Below, piece after piece: positions 5,492-45,767 of a stretch of 64,000 nt of DNA (positions within the stretch are counted from its first letter, which is position 1; each line of letters begins with the position of its first letter). The stretch comes from Parcubacteria bacterium RAAC4_OD1_1 (GTDB taxonomy: Bacteria; Patescibacteriota; Minisyncoccia; Phycocordibacterales; UBA9973). A model generated the notes under the pieces. That model saw only the letters and a program-made list of their open reading frames with translations, made no database searches and was not told the DNA's origin. Position numbers and translations under genes: made by a program. The DNA is taken from contig AWSN01000001.1 of assembly GCA_000505065.1 (NCBI GenBank), forward strand, positions 487,772 to 551,771, read 5' to 3'.

Positions 5492-5635
5492 ATGTATTAT
5501 TGGTTGATAGTAAGAATAAAATATATATGAGAAACCATACTTTATTCAAATTACCAACATAAAATTATTAATAATTAATATAGACCATCATCTTATCAAA
5601 TATAAAAAGAAAGTCAACCCCCCACACTATATATT

Positions 5636-5662
5636 AAAACACTCACAATGTGTGAGTGTTTT
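5636..5662. terminator. Bidirectional rho-independent terminator (12-bp perfect stem)
   Basis: The sequence is aaaacactcacaatgtgtgagtgtttt. Confidence 0.7.
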
Positions 5663-5680
5663 AATATTTAAATTCAATTA

Positions 5681-9335: not shown

Positions 9336-9368
9336 AAAAAAGTCGAGCTTTAGCTCGACTTTTTTATT
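9335..9368. terminator. Bidirectional terminator between convergent genes
   Basis: The sequence is aaaaaaaagtcgagctttagctcgacttttttatt. Confidence 0.7.
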
Positions 9369-11753: not shown

Positions 11754-12509
11754 CCAGATAGTGGTTTAACCACTATCTGGAAGATTTTCATCTTCTAGTA
11801 AGGAAACTTTTCCTCTTTCTTTTCTAATAATTTCTACAATTTCCTCTGAATGTTGTTTAAAATCTGAAATACCCTTAAAAACTTCAAGAATTCTTAAACC
11901 CTCTTCTTTCGAAACAATATTAAAATCATTATTTTCATATTCATTGTCACTAGCAAGAATAAGATCTTTTAAATCTTCTGGGATATCATGAACTTGATAA
12001 TTTTTATTTACATATCCAATAATTTTATTAAAATAATTTTCATTACCCATCAATTGAGACTTAAAAGTTCCCTGAAAAAGCGATCCGGAGCGAGAATTTT
12101 TTACATTAAAATAGTAAGTATAAGCTCCTTGTAATTTCTGCATAAATTTAGCTATTCCTCCATCTACATTTTGTTTCAAAACAAAATGAAAATGATTTGG
12201 ATTTAAACAATAAGCAACAACTAAAACTAATGGTTTATCCCCAGATAGTGGTTTAACCACTATCTGGGATTTTTTTGTCTTTCTTAAGTTTGACAAACTC
12301 ACTATTTTTTCTATTTTATTAAATTCTTTTATACTTTCAATAAATCTAAATAAATCACTCTTATCAGAAAAAATGTTTCTCTTGTCAACCCCCCTATTGT
12401 AAATATGGTAATATTCTCCATTTAATAAAGGTTGTTTTCTTAACATGTTCTTATTATATCATATAATCAAATCTACAGATAGTGGTTTAACCACTATCTG
12501 TAGATTTGA
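11754..12509 (-). mobile_element. RAYT paralog 1 unit bounded by P1 palindromes (ccagatagtggtttaaccactatctgg)
   Basis: P1 copies lie at 11754-11780 and 12241-12267 (internal), and an extended 43-nt perfect palindrome lies at 12467-12509. Confidence 0.6.
11766..12446 (-). CDS. IS200-like HuH tyrosine transposase, REP-associated (RAYT-like), paralog 1
   Basis: YHIYNRGV near the N-terminus and a HuH motif in CLNPNHFHFVL, then AYTYYF. The gene is flanked by palindrome P1 copies, one copy is internal, and P1 supplies the stop codon. Confidence 0.7.
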   Translation of the reverse strand: MLRKQPLLNGEYYHIYNRGVDKRNIFSDKSDLFRFIESIKEFNKIEKIVSLSNLRKTKKSQIVVKPLSGDKPLVLVVAYCLNPNHFHFVLKQNVDGGIAKFMQKLQGAYTYYFNVKNSRSGSLFQGTFKSQLMGNENYFNKIIGYVNKNYQVHDIPEDLKDLILASDNEYENNDFNIVSKEEGLRILEVFKGISDFKQHSEEIVEIIRKERGKVSLLEDENLPDSG

Positions 12510-12660
12510 TTAAGTATTGCATAAATTAGATTCTTATAGTAACATTCTATATGTAACAGTCCGTTTTCAAACCGGGCTTTTATTTTTCTTAAATGTCGAA
12601 TTTAAGAATAACAATTTAATAACAATTTAATAAAAAGGTCTCTTGTTTTTATTGTATTTT

Positions 12661-19799: not shown

Positions 19800-19813
19800 A
19801 TTCCGGTAAATCA

Positions 19814-19849
19814 ATAGCCTCGCAAGCTTTGCTTGCGAGGCTATTTTTT
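19814..19849 (+). terminator. Terminator after clpP
   Basis: The sequence is atagcctcgcaagctttgcttgcgaggctatttttt. Confidence 0.7.
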
Positions 19850-23237: not shown

Positions 23238-23310
23238 TGTCGGGGTGCCGGGAATCGAACCCGGCTCTCGTGTTCCCAAAACACGGATACTACCGATATA
23301 CTACACCCCG
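23238..23310 (-). tRNA. tRNA-Pro (anticodon TGG); CCA not encoded
   Basis: The cloverleaf was folded by eye: acceptor CGGGGTG/CACCCCG, anticodon loop TTTGGGA, T-loop TTCGATT. Confidence 0.8.
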
Positions 23311-23351
23311 AAACTAAACATACAAACAAAATAAAATCAGTAAACCTGATT

Positions 23352-23424
23352 TGTGCGGGATAAGGGAGTCGAACCCTTCACCACAGTTTGGAAAACTGTT
23401 ATTTTACCGATAAACTAATCCCGC
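23352..23424 (-). tRNA. tRNA-Trp (anticodon CCA); CCA end not encoded
   Basis: Acceptor GCGGGAT/ATCCCGC, anticodon loop TTCCAAA, T-arm GGGTTCGACTCCC. Confidence 0.8.
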
Positions 23425-23466
23425 AATCATCATACCAATATAACAAATTTTTACCTTTTTATCAAA

Positions 23467-23883
23467 TCACAATATTATATTTTCTACTACTTTTACTCTA
23501 CCTAGTTTTTTATGTATATCAATATAAACAACCAAAAGGTCAAATTGCCATTCCCTATTCCCTACTCTATTACTTATGAGATAAGTTTCTACTATTCTTC
23601 GAAGTCTTTGCATTTTCCAAATATGCATATTTTCTTCTGGTCTACCTGTTTCAAACCCCCACTGTCCAGGCCTTGCCTGGACAGTGGGGGTAAATGAGAA
23701 TTGTTTTGATTTTACTTCAACAAAATATATCTTATTATCTTTTATTGCAATTATATCTATTTCTCCCCACTTTCTAGTGTAATTTCTTTCTAAAACAAAA
23801 AATCCGTGTTTCATAAGAAACCTACAGGCTAAATCTTCCCCAATTTTACCTATTTTTTGTGAATTTGAAGTAAAACTTTTCAT
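23467..23883 (-). CDS. yraN: YraN (UPF0102) family endonuclease carrying an in-frame P2 palindrome insertion
   Basis: GEIDIIA and VEVKSK motifs; the peptide PTVQARPGQWG is encoded by the 35-nt palindrome at 23656-23690. Confidence 0.7.
   Translation of the reverse strand: MKSFTSNSQKIGKIGEDLACRFLMKHGFFVLERNYTRKWGEIDIIAIKDNKIYFVEVKSKQFSFTPTVQARPGQWGFETGRPEENMHIWKMQRLRRIVETYLISNRVGNREWQFDLLVVYIDIHKKLGRVKVVENIIL
23656..23690. repeat. P2 palindrome copy (cccccactgtccaggccttgcctggacagtggggg), inside yraN
   Basis: A perfect 16-bp stem with a 3-nt loop. It is GC-rich within AT-rich DNA and open in all six frames. Confidence 0.9.
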
Positions 23884-24120
23884 AGTGTTTCACGTGAAAC
23901 ATTTTTAGGTGTTAATAACGGACAAATTCACCTAAAAATTGTACTTTACTAATAAAACCTTATTTATCAAGCTTTTTTATATTTTAGATATAAATATTTG
24001 AATTACAAAGTTTGTCTTTTATAAACAATACACACATACTTATCCACATAATCTATATTTTTAAAGGGTTTTTGGTGTGTATAAAAGACTAATAAAAGTC
24101 ATAATCTATAGTAGTAATTT

Positions 24121-24194
24121 TGTGCACCTGGAGGGATTCGAACCCCCAACGACGGTTCCGAAGACCGGTATGATATCCATTTCACTACAGGTGC
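24121..24194 (-). tRNA. tRNA-Arg (anticodon TCG); CCA not encoded
   Basis: Acceptor GCACCTG/CAGGTGC, anticodon loop CTTCGGA, T-arm GGGGGTTCGAATCCC. Confidence 0.75.
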
Positions 24195-24290
24195 ATATTT
24201 TATATTATACAATAAAATAATAATTTAACAAAACAAATTGCTTTTTGATTTAAAAAATATTATAATAAAAAAGTTATAAAAAATAATTTA

Positions 24291-24363
24291 GCGGTGTTGG
24301 TTTAGTGGTAGAACACGTCCTTGCCAAGGATGAGACAGGAGTTCGATTCTCCTACGCCGCACA
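24291..24363 (+). tRNA. tRNA-Gly (anticodon GCC); CCA not encoded
   Basis: Acceptor GCGGTGT/ACGCCGC, anticodon loop TTGCCAA, T-arm GGAGTTCGATTCTCC. Confidence 0.8.
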
Positions 24364-28571: not shown

Positions 28572-29570
28572 TCACGACTTACTATGATATTTCTTATGTA
28601 TATCTTTTAATTGACGATCTGTAATATGTGTATATATCTGAGTTGTAGCAATATTCGCATGGCCAAGCATCATTTGGACCGAGCGAATATCAGCCCCATT
28701 AGAAAGTAAATCTGTTGCAAAAGAGTGACGAATCACGTGGGGGGTCACCTTCTTAGAAATTCCTGCAATAATTGCATATTGGCGAACAATCCTTTCTATA
28801 GAGCGGGGGGTAATTCTTCCTCCGTTACTGTCCAGGCCTTGCCTGGACTTATTATTTTTGGAATACTGAATAAATAATGGCTCATCCATATCTTTTCTAT
28901 TTTTCAAATATTCTCTTATTGCATCCTTGGCGCTATCTGAAAGGAAAACGACACGAACTTTTTCACCCTTTCCACGGATAGAGAATTCATCTTTTGATAA
29001 ATCCAAGTCCCTATTGAGTGAGCAAAGTTCAGAAAGACGAAGCCCTGTCGAGAAAAAAAGCTCCAATATCGCTTTGTCTCGTAAAGATTTCAAATTCCCA
29101 TAGGTCGGACCTAGGGTCTTATTATTTTTACTTTTTGCCCCTAGGTCCGACCTAGGGGAATTTTCCAAAGGTGCTTTTAAAAGCCTATTTAATTCATCAA
29201 CAGAAATAAGATCCAAAGACCTTTCTTTTATCTTTGCAAGCTCTATCCGATCAGGTGGAAGGGAAGTGATACCTCTTTTCATAAGATATTTAAGGAAAGA
29301 ACGAAGAGCAATAAGATGATAATTCTGAGTATTCTTCTTAAGAGTTGCTGATTGTTGCCCACGAACCTTAACCCCAGGCTGACGATTAAGAAAAAGACGG
29401 AATTCACGAATCTTGTCATCATCAATATCTTTTGGATCTGTTATTTTGGAAAAATCAAAAAACCTACTTATATAATGATCATAATTATTGACCGTTTTTA
29501 GACTATTTCCTTTCTCTATTTCTACATGCTCAAGAAATTCTCTTTTCAATTGCTCTAAATAAGATGCCAT
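28572..29570 (-). CDS. xerC: Tyrosine recombinase XerC/XerD-like, carrying two in-frame palindrome insertions
   Basis: HVIRHSFAT...LGHANIATTQIYTH in the catalytic region. P2 encodes SRQGLDSNGG, and a P3 pair encodes PRSDLGAKSKNNKTLGPTYG. Confidence 0.8.
   Translation of the reverse strand: MASYLEQLKREFLEHVEIEKGNSLKTVNNYDHYISRFFDFSKITDPKDIDDDKIREFRLFLNRQPGVKVRGQQSATLKKNTQNYHLIALRSFLKYLMKRGITSLPPDRIELAKIKERSLDLISVDELNRLLKAPLENSPRSDLGAKSKNNKTLGPTYGNLKSLRDKAILELFFSTGLRLSELCSLNRDLDLSKDEFSIRGKGEKVRVVFLSDSAKDAIREYLKNRKDMDEPLFIQYSKNNKSRQGLDSNGGRITPRSIERIVRQYAIIAGISKKVTPHVIRHSFATDLLSNGADIRSVQMMLGHANIATTQIYTHITDRQLKDIHKKYHSKS
28826..28849. repeat. P2 palindrome copy inside xerC
   Basis: The sequence is actgtccaggccttgcctggact. 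Confidence 0.85.
29098..29157. repeat. Pair of P3 palindromes (cctaggtcSgacctagg) separated by 19 nt, in frame inside xerC
   Basis: ccataggtcggacctaggg ... cccctaggtccgacctagggg. The core gacctaggtc recurs in the rpsO terminator at 30071-30100. Confidence 0.8.
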
Positions 29571-30926: not shown

Positions 30927-30960
30927 CCCCACTGTCCAGGCCTTGCCTGGACAGTGGGGG
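30927..30960. repeat. P2 palindrome copy, 5' UTR of pnp (12 nt before ATG)
   Basis: The sequence is ccccactgtccaggccttgcctggacagtggggg. Confidence 0.9.
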
Positions 30961-42042: not shown

Positions 42043-42053
42043 AAAATATAAAA

Positions 42054-42088
42054 CAAAAACTCCCTCTTTAAAAGAGGGAGTTTTTGTT
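42054..42088 (+). terminator. Terminator before uvrD
   Basis: The sequence is aaaaactccctctttaaaagagggagtttttgttt. Confidence 0.65.
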
Positions 42089-42109
42089 TAAAAATGGTAA
42101 AATGATTTA

Positions 42110-44071: not shown

Positions 44072-44088
44072 ATTTTTTCACAAAACCT

Positions 44089-44859
44089 ACTGTCCAGGCC
44101 TTGCCTGGACAATATTTAATATATATAATAGATAATATGTCTATTAGACCTATCAAATTCGCACCAAATGAAAATTACCACATATACAATCGTGGTGTAA
44201 ATAAAATGAATATTTTTATAGATCATAATGATTATGATCGTTTTATGAAATTAATGTATGTATCAAATTCTACTACCAATAAAAAATTTACCGACATAGA
44301 AACAAGTCCAGGCAAGGCCTGGACACTAGAAAAAGATAGTGATTTGGTAGATATTGTTAGTTATTGTCTTATGCCTAATCATTTTCATTTTATTCTTAGA
44401 GAAAAAATTGAAAATGGCATAAGTATATTTATGCACAGACTCTCTACTTCTTACTCTATGTATTTTAATAAAAAATACGATCGTAATGGAGCACTTTTCC
44501 AAGGAAAATTTAAGTCAGAACATATAAATAATGACAATTATTTTAAATATCTATTTTCATATATTCACTTAAATCCAATAAAACTTATACAAAAAGACTG
44601 GAAAGAAATTGGAATAAAAAATATTGATGTAGCACAAAAATATCTTTTAAAATATCCCTATTCTAGTTTTTTGGATATAATAGAAAAAATTAACAGAATA
44701 GAGTCAAAAATAATAAATAAACTAAGTATTCCTAATTATTTTGGTTCTCCTGAAAATTTTAAAAAGGAAATTTTTGATTGGTTGATAGTTAAAATATGAA
44801 TATTAATAAAAATAAATTTAATAGTGTTAGGAATACTGTCCAGGCAAGGCCTGGACAGT
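44089..44859 (+). mobile_element. RAYT paralog 2 unit bounded by P2 palindromes
   Basis: P2 copies lie at 44089-44111, 44306-44324 (internal, encoding SPGKAWT) and 44835-44859. Confidence 0.55.
44136..44799 (+). CDS. IS200-like HuH tyrosine transposase, REP-associated (RAYT-like), paralog 2 (ORF track starts at TTG 44101)
   Basis: YHIYNRGV near the N-terminus, HuH in CLMPNHFHFIL, then YIHLNPIK and YPYSSF. P2 copies lie upstream, internally and downstream. Confidence 0.7.
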
Positions 44860-45767
44860 GGAAATATAAAGCCAAAAAGCATCTGGGGCAAAACTTTTTA
44901 AAATCTAAAGAAGCAATTAAAACTATATGTGATGCTGGAAAAGTAGAAAAAGAAGATATTATCTTGGAAATTGGCCCCGGGAAAGGGGTTCTCACTGAGG
45001 AGTTGCTAAAAAGAGGGGCAAAAATTCTAGCAATTGAAAAAGACAATGATTTAATTAATTTTTTAATAGAAAAATTTGAATCTTTTCTTCCGTCCACACC
45101 GGGTATGGACATAGATACAAAAAGGTTAAATATAATAAATGAAGATATTTTGGATTTTGATATTTCAAAATATGGACTTTTAGATAAAAAATACAAAATA
45201 ATTGCAAATATTCCATATAATATAACAGGGGCAATAATAAAGAAATTCTTAAGTGAGATCAAAAATAAGCCTATTTTAATGGCTATTTTGGTGCAAAAAG
45301 AGGTTGCGGAAAGAATTGTTGCAAAAAACAGAAAAATAAATAAGCAAAAAACAGAAGCTGTCCAGGCCTTGCCTGGACAGTCCAGGCCTTGCCTGGACAG
45401 TGGGGGGAAGGAGAGTATATTGTCATTGAGTGTGAAAGCTTATGGAGATCCTAAATATATAATGAAAGTATCAAAAAAATATTTCTCACCAGCCCCAAAA
45501 GTGGACTCCGCGATAATACTTATAGATAATATTTCCGATAAAAATTTTAAAAACAATGATGAGGAAAAAACCTTTTTTGATCTAGTTCATGCTGGATTTA
45601 GTCATAAAAGAAAATTATTTATAAAAAACATAGAAAATTTAGATTACCAAAAAGAAAAAATTAAAAAAATGTTTGAAATATTAGAAATTGATAAAAAAAT
45701 AAGAGCAGAAGATATACCTTTTTATAAATGGATAGAAATGAAAGATTTTTTAACTACAAAAAACTAG
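44796..45767 (+). CDS. rsmA: 16S rRNA (adenine1518/1519-N6)-dimethyltransferase RsmA/KsgA carrying three in-frame P2 palindromes
   Basis: LGQNFL and EIGPGKGVLT motifs. The start ATG overlaps the RAYT stop (ATGA). One P2 copy sits in the N-terminal extension (TVQARPGQW), and a tandem pair sits mid-gene (AVQALPGQSRPCLDSGG). Confidence 0.8.
   Translation: MNINKNKFNSVRNTVQARPGQWKYKAKKHLGQNFLKSKEAIKTICDAGKVEKEDIILEIGPGKGVLTEELLKRGAKILAIEKDNDLINFLIEKFESFLPSTPGMDIDTKRLNIINEDILDFDISKYGLLDKKYKIIANIPYNITGAIIKKFLSEIKNKPILMAILVQKEVAERIVAKNRKINKQKTEAVQALPGQSRPCLDSGGKESILSLSVKAYGDPKYIMKVSKKYFSPAPKVDSAIILIDNISDKNFKNNDEEKTFFDLVHAGFSHKRKLFIKNIENLDYQKEKIKKMFEILEIDKKIRAEDIPFYKWIEMKDFLTTKN
45358..45407. repeat. 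Tandem double P2 palindrome inside rsmA
   Basis: ctgtccaggccttgcctggacag is followed immediately by tccaggccttgcctggacagtgggggg. Confidence 0.9.

Follow-up and report, generated by a model that had tools for sequence, protein, structure and literature searches.

The locus described here raises the question of why a gene for a transposase-like protein should be surrounded by copies of one palindrome and also carry a copy inside its own reading frame. In a stretch of 64,000 nucleotides from Parcubacteria bacterium RAAC4_OD1_1 (contig AWSN01000001.1, positions 487,772 to 551,771), hereafter called the window, two genes resembling RAYTs, the tyrosine transposases associated with repetitive extragenic palindromes (REPs), show this arrangement, each with a palindrome of its own. 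We designate the three sites U (upstream hairpin), I (internal in-frame hairpin), and T (hairpin at or near the stop codon). The U/I/T layout is a trait of the family and is not peculiar to this genome: the flanking pair is the base architecture, and the internal copy is old, widespread, dispensable, and usually kept identical to the flanks. Each locus is quite probably a REPtron, that is, a vertically inherited domesticated gene of the Y1 HuH type together with its cognate REP hairpin, in which, by analogy with characterised systems, the internal copy would be a passenger.

Paralog 1 (11766..12446, minus strand) encodes 226 aa and is 100% identical to NCBI DIC38_01010; its HuH motif is NHFH, and Tyr145 in GYVNKNY is the putative catalytic residue. 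The associated palindrome, P1, is the 27-nt sequence CCAGATAGTGGTTTAACCACTATCTGG. The initial annotation had reported three P1 copies in and around this gene, and sequence search confirmed them: two were exact (11754-11780 and 12241-12267) and the third, at 12475-12501, differed by 2 mismatches, both in the outermost bases. No P1 match occurred in 100 shuffles, and no further copy was found in the window beyond these three. The upstream copy, P1-U, is a perfect palindrome as first described, but it measures 49 nt with 24-nt arms (12464..12512; core ACAGATAGTGGTTAAACCACTATCTGT) rather than 43 nt (12467-12509). The internal copy, P1-I (12240..12268, 14-bp arms), was correctly recognised as in frame; it encodes residues S60-G69, SQIVVKPLSG, in a loop before the HuH strand. 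At the 3' end, P1-T (11754..11780) encodes PDSG, and translation of the open reading frame (ORF) confirmed that its central TAA (11766-11768) is the stop codon. Folding as DNA gave -22.8 kcal/mol (z -12.5) for P1-U, -14 kcal/mol (z -6.8) for P1-I, and -12.2 kcal/mol for P1-T; the six hairpins of both paralogs, treated as single-stranded DNA, ranged from -8.9 to -22.8 kcal/mol with z from -4.5 to -12.5.

Paralog 2 (44137..44799, plus strand; 220 aa; NHFH, LFQG, and YIHLNP) starts at ATG 44137, is identical to the 220-aa NCBI DIC38_00855, and shares 43% identity with paralog 1; these two are the only RAYT-like copies in the window. It is flanked by the genes for PcrA/UvrD and KsgA, an arrangement common to its orthologues. 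The palindrome of this gene, P2, is TGTCCAGGC-NNN-GCCTGGACA. P2-U (44088..44114, with P2 at 44091) has the loop CTT and is inverted relative to I and T; it is terminator-like for the PcrA gene lying upstream, and a promoter-like site at 44101-44129 (+), TTGCCT-17-TATAAT, has its -35 hexamer within this hairpin. P2-I (44305..44325; 8-bp stem, loop AAG) lies in frame and encodes SPGKAWT. P2-T (44835..44859, with P2 at 44837; 11-bp stem, loop AAG) is in frame in the N-terminal region of the KsgA ORF. Paralog 2 had been said to repeat the layout of paralog 1 with its own palindrome. The upstream, internal, and downstream copies are indeed there, but the third lies off the stop codon, 36 nt past it and without overlap. 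Two further parts of that description stand: the alignment of the paralogs places both internal copies at the homologous position, in the loop between YHIYNRGV and NHFH, and each gene is tied to its own palindrome family, P1 or P2, the internal copy being the cognate hairpin.

Both proteins are predicted to be RAYT-like Y1 HuH transposases. Their membership, already proposed in the initial annotation, was upheld by hidden Markov model (HMM) search, in which Pfam PF01797 Y1_Tnp scored 32.8 bits (paralog 1) and 35.9 bits (paralog 2) vs. a cutoff of 23; the match was confined to profile positions 39-121, from the HuH motif onward. NHFH, Y145, and N149 are invariant among 32 homologues, and the motifs are present in both paralogs, the catalytic role of the tyrosine being putative. 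The Y---NP signature at this tyrosine reads YIHLNP in paralog 2 and YVNKNY in paralog 1, with NY in place of NP. An AlphaFold2 (AF2) model of paralog 1 built from the 32 homologues was of moderate quality (predicted local distance difference test, pLDDT, 60; core 70-83) and is consistent with the beta-alpha-beta-beta-alpha-beta-alpha HuH fold. The top 29 PDB matches of this model in Foldseek were all TnpA of IS608, ISDra2, or IS200 or the RAYT-REP complex 4er8 (probability 0.98-1.0, E down to 3e-4). No solved relative emerged at E ≤ 0.01 when the PDB was searched by sequence with a profile of the 32 homologues, and no second Pfam domain of the C-terminal helix-turn-helix-like kind (Bac_DnaA_C, HTH_23, HTH_28) was found at E ≤ 0.01. 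The NCBIfam model REP_Tyr_transpos NF047646 gave 22.1 and 44.2 bits vs. a cutoff of 80; judged by this profile, neither gene is an equivalog of the E. coli-type RAYT. Assigned by comparison of motifs with the published Table 1 (PMC6006769) rather than with the HMMs of its authors, the proteins resemble subclass 2.1, for which NH[YF]H, FQ, and Y[IV]HLNP are characteristic: paralog 2 has NHFH, LFQG, and YIHLNP, and paralog 1 has NHFH, LFQG, and YVNKNY. Patescibacteria have a great many members of this family: the two queries drew more than 7,600 and more than 3,200 matches.

The layout was analysed in a homologous set of 80 loci (L001-L080) out of 80 Patescibacteria assemblies, 75 of them with a full-length gene. 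An internal hairpin was counted when it had at least 8 pairs, and cores were compared by an inner-core scan allowing up to 2 mismatches. An internal hairpin in the same loop before the HuH motif was found in 46 of the 75 full-length loci. The same core recurred within 130 nt upstream of the start codon in 34 of these 46 loci, at the stop codon in 39, at both places in 32, and at neither in 5. The upstream core started at a median of -42. Core copies numbered 77 in 11.7 kb of flank zones vs. 9 in 318 kb of the remaining flanks. The internal core matched the gene's own flanks in 41 of 46 loci, agreement across loci amounted to 3.9% of comparisons, and distinct internal core sequences numbered 41 among the 46. 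The stems at U, I, and T showed 90% Watson-Crick pairing vs. 38% in a control window, with mostly 3-4 different pair types at a stem position across loci. In 14 of 39 loci the stop codon stood exactly at the centre of the 3' hairpin, and I and T had the same orientation in 19 of the 26 loci where this was callable. The pattern has an echo in the protein: the internal motif Q-I-x-x-K-x-L-S co-varies with the C-terminal P-D-x-x exactly as a single palindrome translated in two frames would predict.

Two side observations concern the hairpins of this set. The stem position six bases from the hairpin centre was G-C in 44 of 45 internal hairpins with otherwise unrelated sequences, and P2 of the window has C-G instead; the regularity could mark a recognition determinant common to these hairpins or come from sampling. 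In one Moranbacteria locus (L071), annotated as 288 aa, the hairpin ACAGCGGTTCGACCGCTGT appears to occur at +175, +391, and +670 inside the called ORF, +391 being a second internal site; this locus may have a mis-called start or an extra internal copy.

Concerted evolution was seen most directly at the PcrA-KsgA site. The hairpin of the window is GTCCAGGC-AAG-GCCTGGAC, those of two orthologues are GTCCAGGT-CGG-ACCTGGAC (L202) and GTCCATGT-CGG-ACATGGAC (L203), and every compensatory change in this series was found in the upstream, internal, and downstream copies. In a further orthologue (L201), the flanking copies are perfect and the internal copy is beginning to decay (<7 pairs); in another (L204), all three hairpin copies are lost. 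The PcrA/UvrD-KsgA position of paralog 2 is common to orthologues down to 53% identity and to Zambryskibacteria loci. Other conserved synteny groups (S1/Pth...GyrA, Ndk...MBL-fold gene, and others) span species and candidate phyla-level groups. The NusA neighbour of paralog 1 was found in 0 of the 80 loci, and related subfamily-1 genes lie in other conserved synteny groups. The RAYT-like genes are stable chromosomal residents and are vertically inherited.

As to the internal copy, the initial annotation gave the distance between the YHIYNRGV block and the HuH motif as about 75 aa; the spacing is long, but the measured values are 71 aa (paralog 1) and 67 aa (paralog 2). The proposal that the extra segment before the HuH motif maps to the palindrome did not hold. 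The spacer is 64-68 aa in nearly all homologues, and its median, 69 aa, is the same whether or not an internal hairpin is present, while the palindrome contributes only about 9 residues; we therefore rejected the palindrome as the cause of the long spacer, which is a family trait irrespective of the internal hairpin. Residues 60-69 encoded by P1-I coincide with a low-confidence loop (60-68) of the AF2 model, predicted to lie between an extra helix and the strand towards the HuH motif. The HuH codons follow the internal copy at 44-83 nt, a distance that changes by multiples of three only. The hairpin centre falls in codon phase 0 at 36 of 41 loci although the hairpin sequences are unrelated; phase 1 occurs in paralog 2 of the window and in 4 of the 41 loci. 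In 12 of the 75 loci no internal hairpin is present, and matching U and T copies and an intact ORF are retained; six of these 12 keep a diverged remnant, and six belong to distant subfamilies without a trace. The decayed remnants are at the same site and still encode the same peptide. Loss of the internal copy where U and T persist argues against its being essential.

The internal hairpins of both paralogs are terminator-like on the antisense strand, at 12240-12278 (+) and 44306-44324 (-), with a T-rich tail. On the sense strand, the internal hairpin is directly preceded on its 5' side by an A-run in 31 of 46 loci vs. an in-gene background of 23%. A function as antisense terminator was considered and rejected: the A-run coincides with the conserved Lys-rich peptide LRKTKK and was not taken as functional evidence.

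The palindromes are also found away from the genes. Five P2 copies lie in the window outside the U, I, and T sites of paralog 2. A tandem pair (45359..45399) is located in frame in the middle of KsgA (16S rRNA dimethyltransferase; ORF 44796..45767), where it forms a 25-aa insertion, KINKQKTEAVQALPGQSRPCLDSGG, that is absent from the syntenic orthologues in L073 and L075. KsgA carries three in-frame P2 copies, one near the N-terminus and the two in tandem, and Pfam RrnaAD matches this protein in two stretches. The tandem copies show that P2 is mobile or has been copied. Further copies are located in a YraN-like ORF (23467..23883, minus strand; hairpin at 23655..23691 with 17-bp arms, in frame, encoding TVQARPGQW) and in an Xer-like tyrosine recombinase ORF (28572..29570, minus strand; hairpin at 28829..28849, in frame, encoding SRQGLDS), both names being read from translations rather than from a domain search. 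An intergenic copy (30927..30959, 15-bp arms) stands 13 nt upstream of the PNPase start.

P1-class hairpins were sought in metagenomes with the pattern CCAGATAG-N4-TAA-N4-CTATCTGG (contigs L081-L200, 120 stretches listed). Many of the contigs in which they lie scattered, with no RAYT gene close by, are Patescibacteria-like. Among the matches listed there were 127 such hairpins, 97 of them away from any RAYT gene, and a RAYT homologue was present in only 25 of the 120 stretches. The 97 hairpins without a RAYT gene comprised 63 in intergenic positions, 20 in ORFs of at least 80 aa, and 14 at the 3' ends of ORFs; the latter may supply the stop codon. Examples among the same matches were found inside a 966-aa ORF (L088) and a 600-aa ORF (L133), and tandem or paired copies in L081 and L108. 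Thus P1-class and P2 palindromes are REP-like dispersed families, often within coding sequence.

Some other features of the window lie near the P2 copies or resemble them in form. A cluster of four tRNA genes on both strands (23240-24361; Rfam matches at 23240, 23354, 24123, and 24291) flanks the P2-bearing YraN-like ORF; the Rfam scan of the whole window yielded only these four tRNAs and no match for the hairpins. Palindromes unrelated to P1 and P2 occur at 42051-42089, 19813-19845, 9336-9365, and 5628-5670 (arms of 19, 15, 14, and 20 nt, respectively). They are probably for the most part ordinary terminators, such as the one at 42051-42089 directly upstream of PcrA.

The upstream copy stands in a distinct expression context. 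A predicted extended -10 element of paralog 1, TGATATAAT (12453..12461, minus strand), ends 6 nt before the ATG (12446), and P1-U ends 2 nt from its TGn. In 40 of the 75 loci a -10-like hexamer was found whose end is exactly 6 nt ahead of the ATG, an extended TGn accompanying it in 29, and the upstream hairpin core, whose end is at a median of -23, abuts this element. A Shine-Dalgarno-like motif was seen in the upstream regions of 0 of 75 loci. The scan for a sigma-70-type consensus, which demands a -35 hexamer, gave no site upstream of paralog 1, and promoter-like sites in both paralog regions were no commoner than in shuffles; the extended -10/leaderless signal was seen solely in the positional profile across loci. 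From this profile the RAYT-like genes are probably leaderless. If transcripts are leaderless, U would be an element acting at the DNA level or an upstream terminator, and only I and T would be present in the mRNA. In IS200, a hairpin upstream of the gene can shield it from transcription that reads through. Apart from this, the GC skew of the window is negative to about 12 kb, near zero or mixed at 12-28 kb, and positive from about 28 kb, with the cumulative minimum at about 8-28 kb, which suggests a replication origin or terminus between about 8 and 28 kb; in that case, the two RAYT-like genes, at 12 kb on the minus strand and at 44 kb on the plus strand, would each point the same way as replication.

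The REPtron reading can be put as follows. The hairpin has three fixed places: U stands next to a predicted extended -10 promoter of the leaderless kind, I in a surface loop, predicted to be disordered, before the HuH beta-strand, and T at or next to the stop codon, which in the P1 class is the TAA of the hairpin centre. The characterised TnpA_REP cleaves and rejoins single-stranded REPs beside the hairpin, is strand-specific, and loses activity with a mismatched stem (PMC8266576). By analogy, the enzyme would recognise its hairpin on single-stranded DNA and cleave and rejoin beside it, which may spread hairpins over the genome, many of them ending up in frame in loops of other genes that tolerate them. 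Either copy replacement mediated by the enzyme or template switching over short tracts would keep the local copies, less than 1 kb apart, in line with the current specificity. The internal copy would be an old resident REP in a permissive loop, carried along by homogenisation, not needed for catalysis, and free to decay; together with the copy at the stop codon, it would probably lower expression of the gene as a side effect.

Several points weigh against this reading. The NF047646 score far below the cutoff makes transfer of the E. coli mechanism an extrapolation, the AF2 model is only moderate (pLDDT 60), and the hairpins are without the canonical 5' GT[AG]G tag that characterised REPs carry. 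Within the window P1 is confined to paralog 1 and not dispersed, so that activity of this paralog in this genome is only putative. Recombination alone, with no part played by the enzyme, could account for homogenisation. A position conserved to 43% identity and perfect stems of up to 20 bp inside the ORF would fit direct selection equally well, and two codon phases make more than one acquisition of the internal copy possible.

Other explanations differ in what they make of the same observations. Taken as an active insertion sequence of the IS200 kind, the locus would be a transposing unit of ~750 bp with U and T as its left-end and right-end hairpins. The hairpins do directly bracket a Y1 transposase gene, as in IS200, and the predicted fold is nearest to IS608 and ISDra2 TnpA, but the sites of the genes are syntenic and conserved among species and candidate phyla-level groups, the window's two copies share just 43% identity and differ in their hairpins, and hairpins are dispersed by themselves without the gene. 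Several near-identical copies at unrelated sites were not seen. This explanation was rejected on synteny and copy divergence and is highly improbable; moreover, concerted change of the hairpin at one syntenic site rules out an active insertion sequence. Recurrent self-insertion, which the initial annotation had suggested, would require a cis-preferring enzyme whose REPs land in its own gene, with survivors only in one permissive loop and with an open frame. REPs within ORFs are frequent (20 of the 97 P1-class hairpins among the matches listed; P2 in KsgA, in tandem, and in the YraN-like and Xer-like ORFs), there are two codon-phase classes, the intragenic REPs of subclass 2.4 have been published as insertions (PMC6006769), and in the PcrA-KsgA group the loop of L073, which has the internal copy, is a few residues longer than those of L069 and L075, which have none. 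Self-insertion is nevertheless improbable, given that spacer length has the same distribution with and without the internal copy, that one codon phase prevails despite unrelated hairpins, that decayed remnants at the same site encode the same peptide, and that, L071 excepted, no locus was seen with two internal copies there or with copies at other points of the gene. It is more parsimonious to assume that the hairpin was acquired once or a few times long ago and then evolved in concert where it stands.

The internal hairpin might instead be a co-opted autoregulatory element, selected as such and either bound or cleaved by the gene's own enzyme on single-stranded DNA or acting in the leaderless mRNA, where this strong hairpin and that at the stop codon would throttle translation or trigger RNA cleavage; either way, the enzyme level would be tied to its own specificity. 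This possibility, also raised in the initial annotation, we hold only tentatively. It would account for an internal position conserved to 43% identity across subfamilies and several synteny groups, for internal stems paired as well as the flanking ones (90%) and reaching 20-23 bp within the ORF, for the common orientation of I and T in most callable loci, for the fixed distance of U from the promoter, which would suit an operator, and for the excess of A-runs 5' of the internal copy. IS200 limits its transposase through hairpins, and for E. coli a drop in translation has been reported where REPs lie near stop codons. Regulation of this kind is at odds, however, with the 12 loci that keep U, T, and an intact ORF without the internal copy and with several other loci in which the internal copy is the first to decay. 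In the RNA version, structure alone would do, which leaves the sequence identity with U and T unexplained, and the A-run coincides with the conserved Lys-rich patch and may reflect a constraint on the protein. A more elaborate form, in which the internal hairpin is a selected self-targeting operator or cleavage site on single-stranded DNA or mRNA and U, I, and T make up a three-point control circuit that re-tunes as specificity drifts, seems to us rather doubtful; here, the enzyme might also catalyse reversible excision between the internal and the stop-codon copies.

Among known systems, the nearest are the REPtrons. It is established that REPs flank RAYT genes, that REP and RAYT co-evolve, that RAYT genes are single-copy and vertically inherited, and that REPs occur within unrelated genes (PMC2817692, PMC3116915, PMC5581495, PMC3733652). 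The loci described here share with REPtrons (Nunvar 2010, PMC2817692; Bertels & Rainey 2011, PMC3116915; Ton-Hoang 2012, PMC3333891; Corneloup 2021, PMC8266576) a single- or low-copy, vertically inherited Y1 HuH gene bracketed by palindromes that are also dispersed, as well as an own REP family for each paralog and the co-evolution of gene and REP. They differ in their host, which belongs to the candidate phyla radiation (CPR), in the third copy at a fixed loop inside the ORF, in a 3' copy that often forms the stop codon, and in the low REP copy number. No GTAG/GTGG tag was seen at the foot of the P1 and P2 hairpins, GATAG occurring inside the P1 stem only, and the proteins fall below the cutoff of the NCBIfam RAYT equivalog model. 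With class 2 they share cognate palindromes that flank the gene and are dispersed as well (P2 in the window, P1-class hairpins in metagenomes), copies that are few and of low identity, and vertical inheritance (two copies, 43%, conserved synteny).

Within this class, the internal copy recalls subclass 2.4 (Bertels Group 4), for which in-frame REPs inside tnpA_REP, at another position, were published in 2018 (Quentin, Siguier, Chandler & Fichant, PMC6006769): a cognate in-frame REP in a peripheral variable region is combined there with flanking REPs (PMC6006769). However, that subclass has WQ, YIxNNP, and hosts among Cyanobacteria and Bacteroidetes (PMC6006769), whereas FQ, YIHLNP/YVNKNY, and CPR hosts are found here; the copy before the HuH motif is in a different place from that in subclass 2.4; and a fixed U/I/T triplet evolving in concert at syntenic orthologues is not described for subclass 2.4 in PMC6006769. 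The motifs, the length of ~220-240 aa with a C-terminal extension, and the low copy number rather match subclass 2.1, Bertels Group 1, or TIRYT (Di Nocera 2013, PMC3733652; PMC6006769). Those genes have been reported without nearby REP-like sequences or with GGGGWSAS terminal inverted repeats (PMC6006769, PMC3733652); the loci here have clear cognate hairpins, and no GGGGWSAS motif was seen in their flanks.

The likeness to IS200, IS608, and ISDra2 lies in the Y1 HuH fold and the subterminal hairpins on either side of tnpA. Unlike IS200/IS605 elements, the loci are not multi-copy mobile units, have conserved synteny and hairpins dispersed alone, and encode a protein ~70 aa longer than the TnpA of that family, with an extra helix and loop before the HuH motif. 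Rickettsia palindromic elements (RPEs) and other intragenic REPs are similar in being palindromic repeats placed in frame in housekeeping genes of a reduced genome and tolerated as peptide loops (PMC3733652), as in KsgA and the YraN-like and Xer-like ORFs here. The elements here are, however, 21-35 nt long vs. ~100-150 nt for RPE-1, and a candidate mobilising enzyme is encoded next to or around the copies. No description of a REP/RAYT system in Patescibacteria was found in the incomplete literature searched. What is new is a REPtron of CPR bacteria with the motifs of subclass 2.1, previously reported as REP-free; it is of the known REP/RAYT kind and not a new type of element.

REP/RAYT systems are among the few long-lived, vertically inherited partnerships of a repeat and an enzyme in bacteria, in which enzyme specificity and hairpins change jointly. 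This clade provides dozens of syntenic gene-hairpin sets with 41 distinct hairpins and three in-register cognate sites each, which are data for a recognition code and for a test of enzyme-driven homogenisation. REPtrons are thereby extended to CPR bacteria and to a protein subclass reported as REP-free. Core genes of very small genomes, that of KsgA among them, thus tolerate peptide loops encoded by REPs, which calls for caution in the annotation of CPR proteins and in the reading of their 'insertions'. If the internal copy does regulate the gene, an enzyme substrate within its own coding sequence would serve as a control element, which is unusual; in the more elaborate form, there would be a self-targeting circuit conserved across Patescibacteria, by which the enzyme would sense and limit its own activity.

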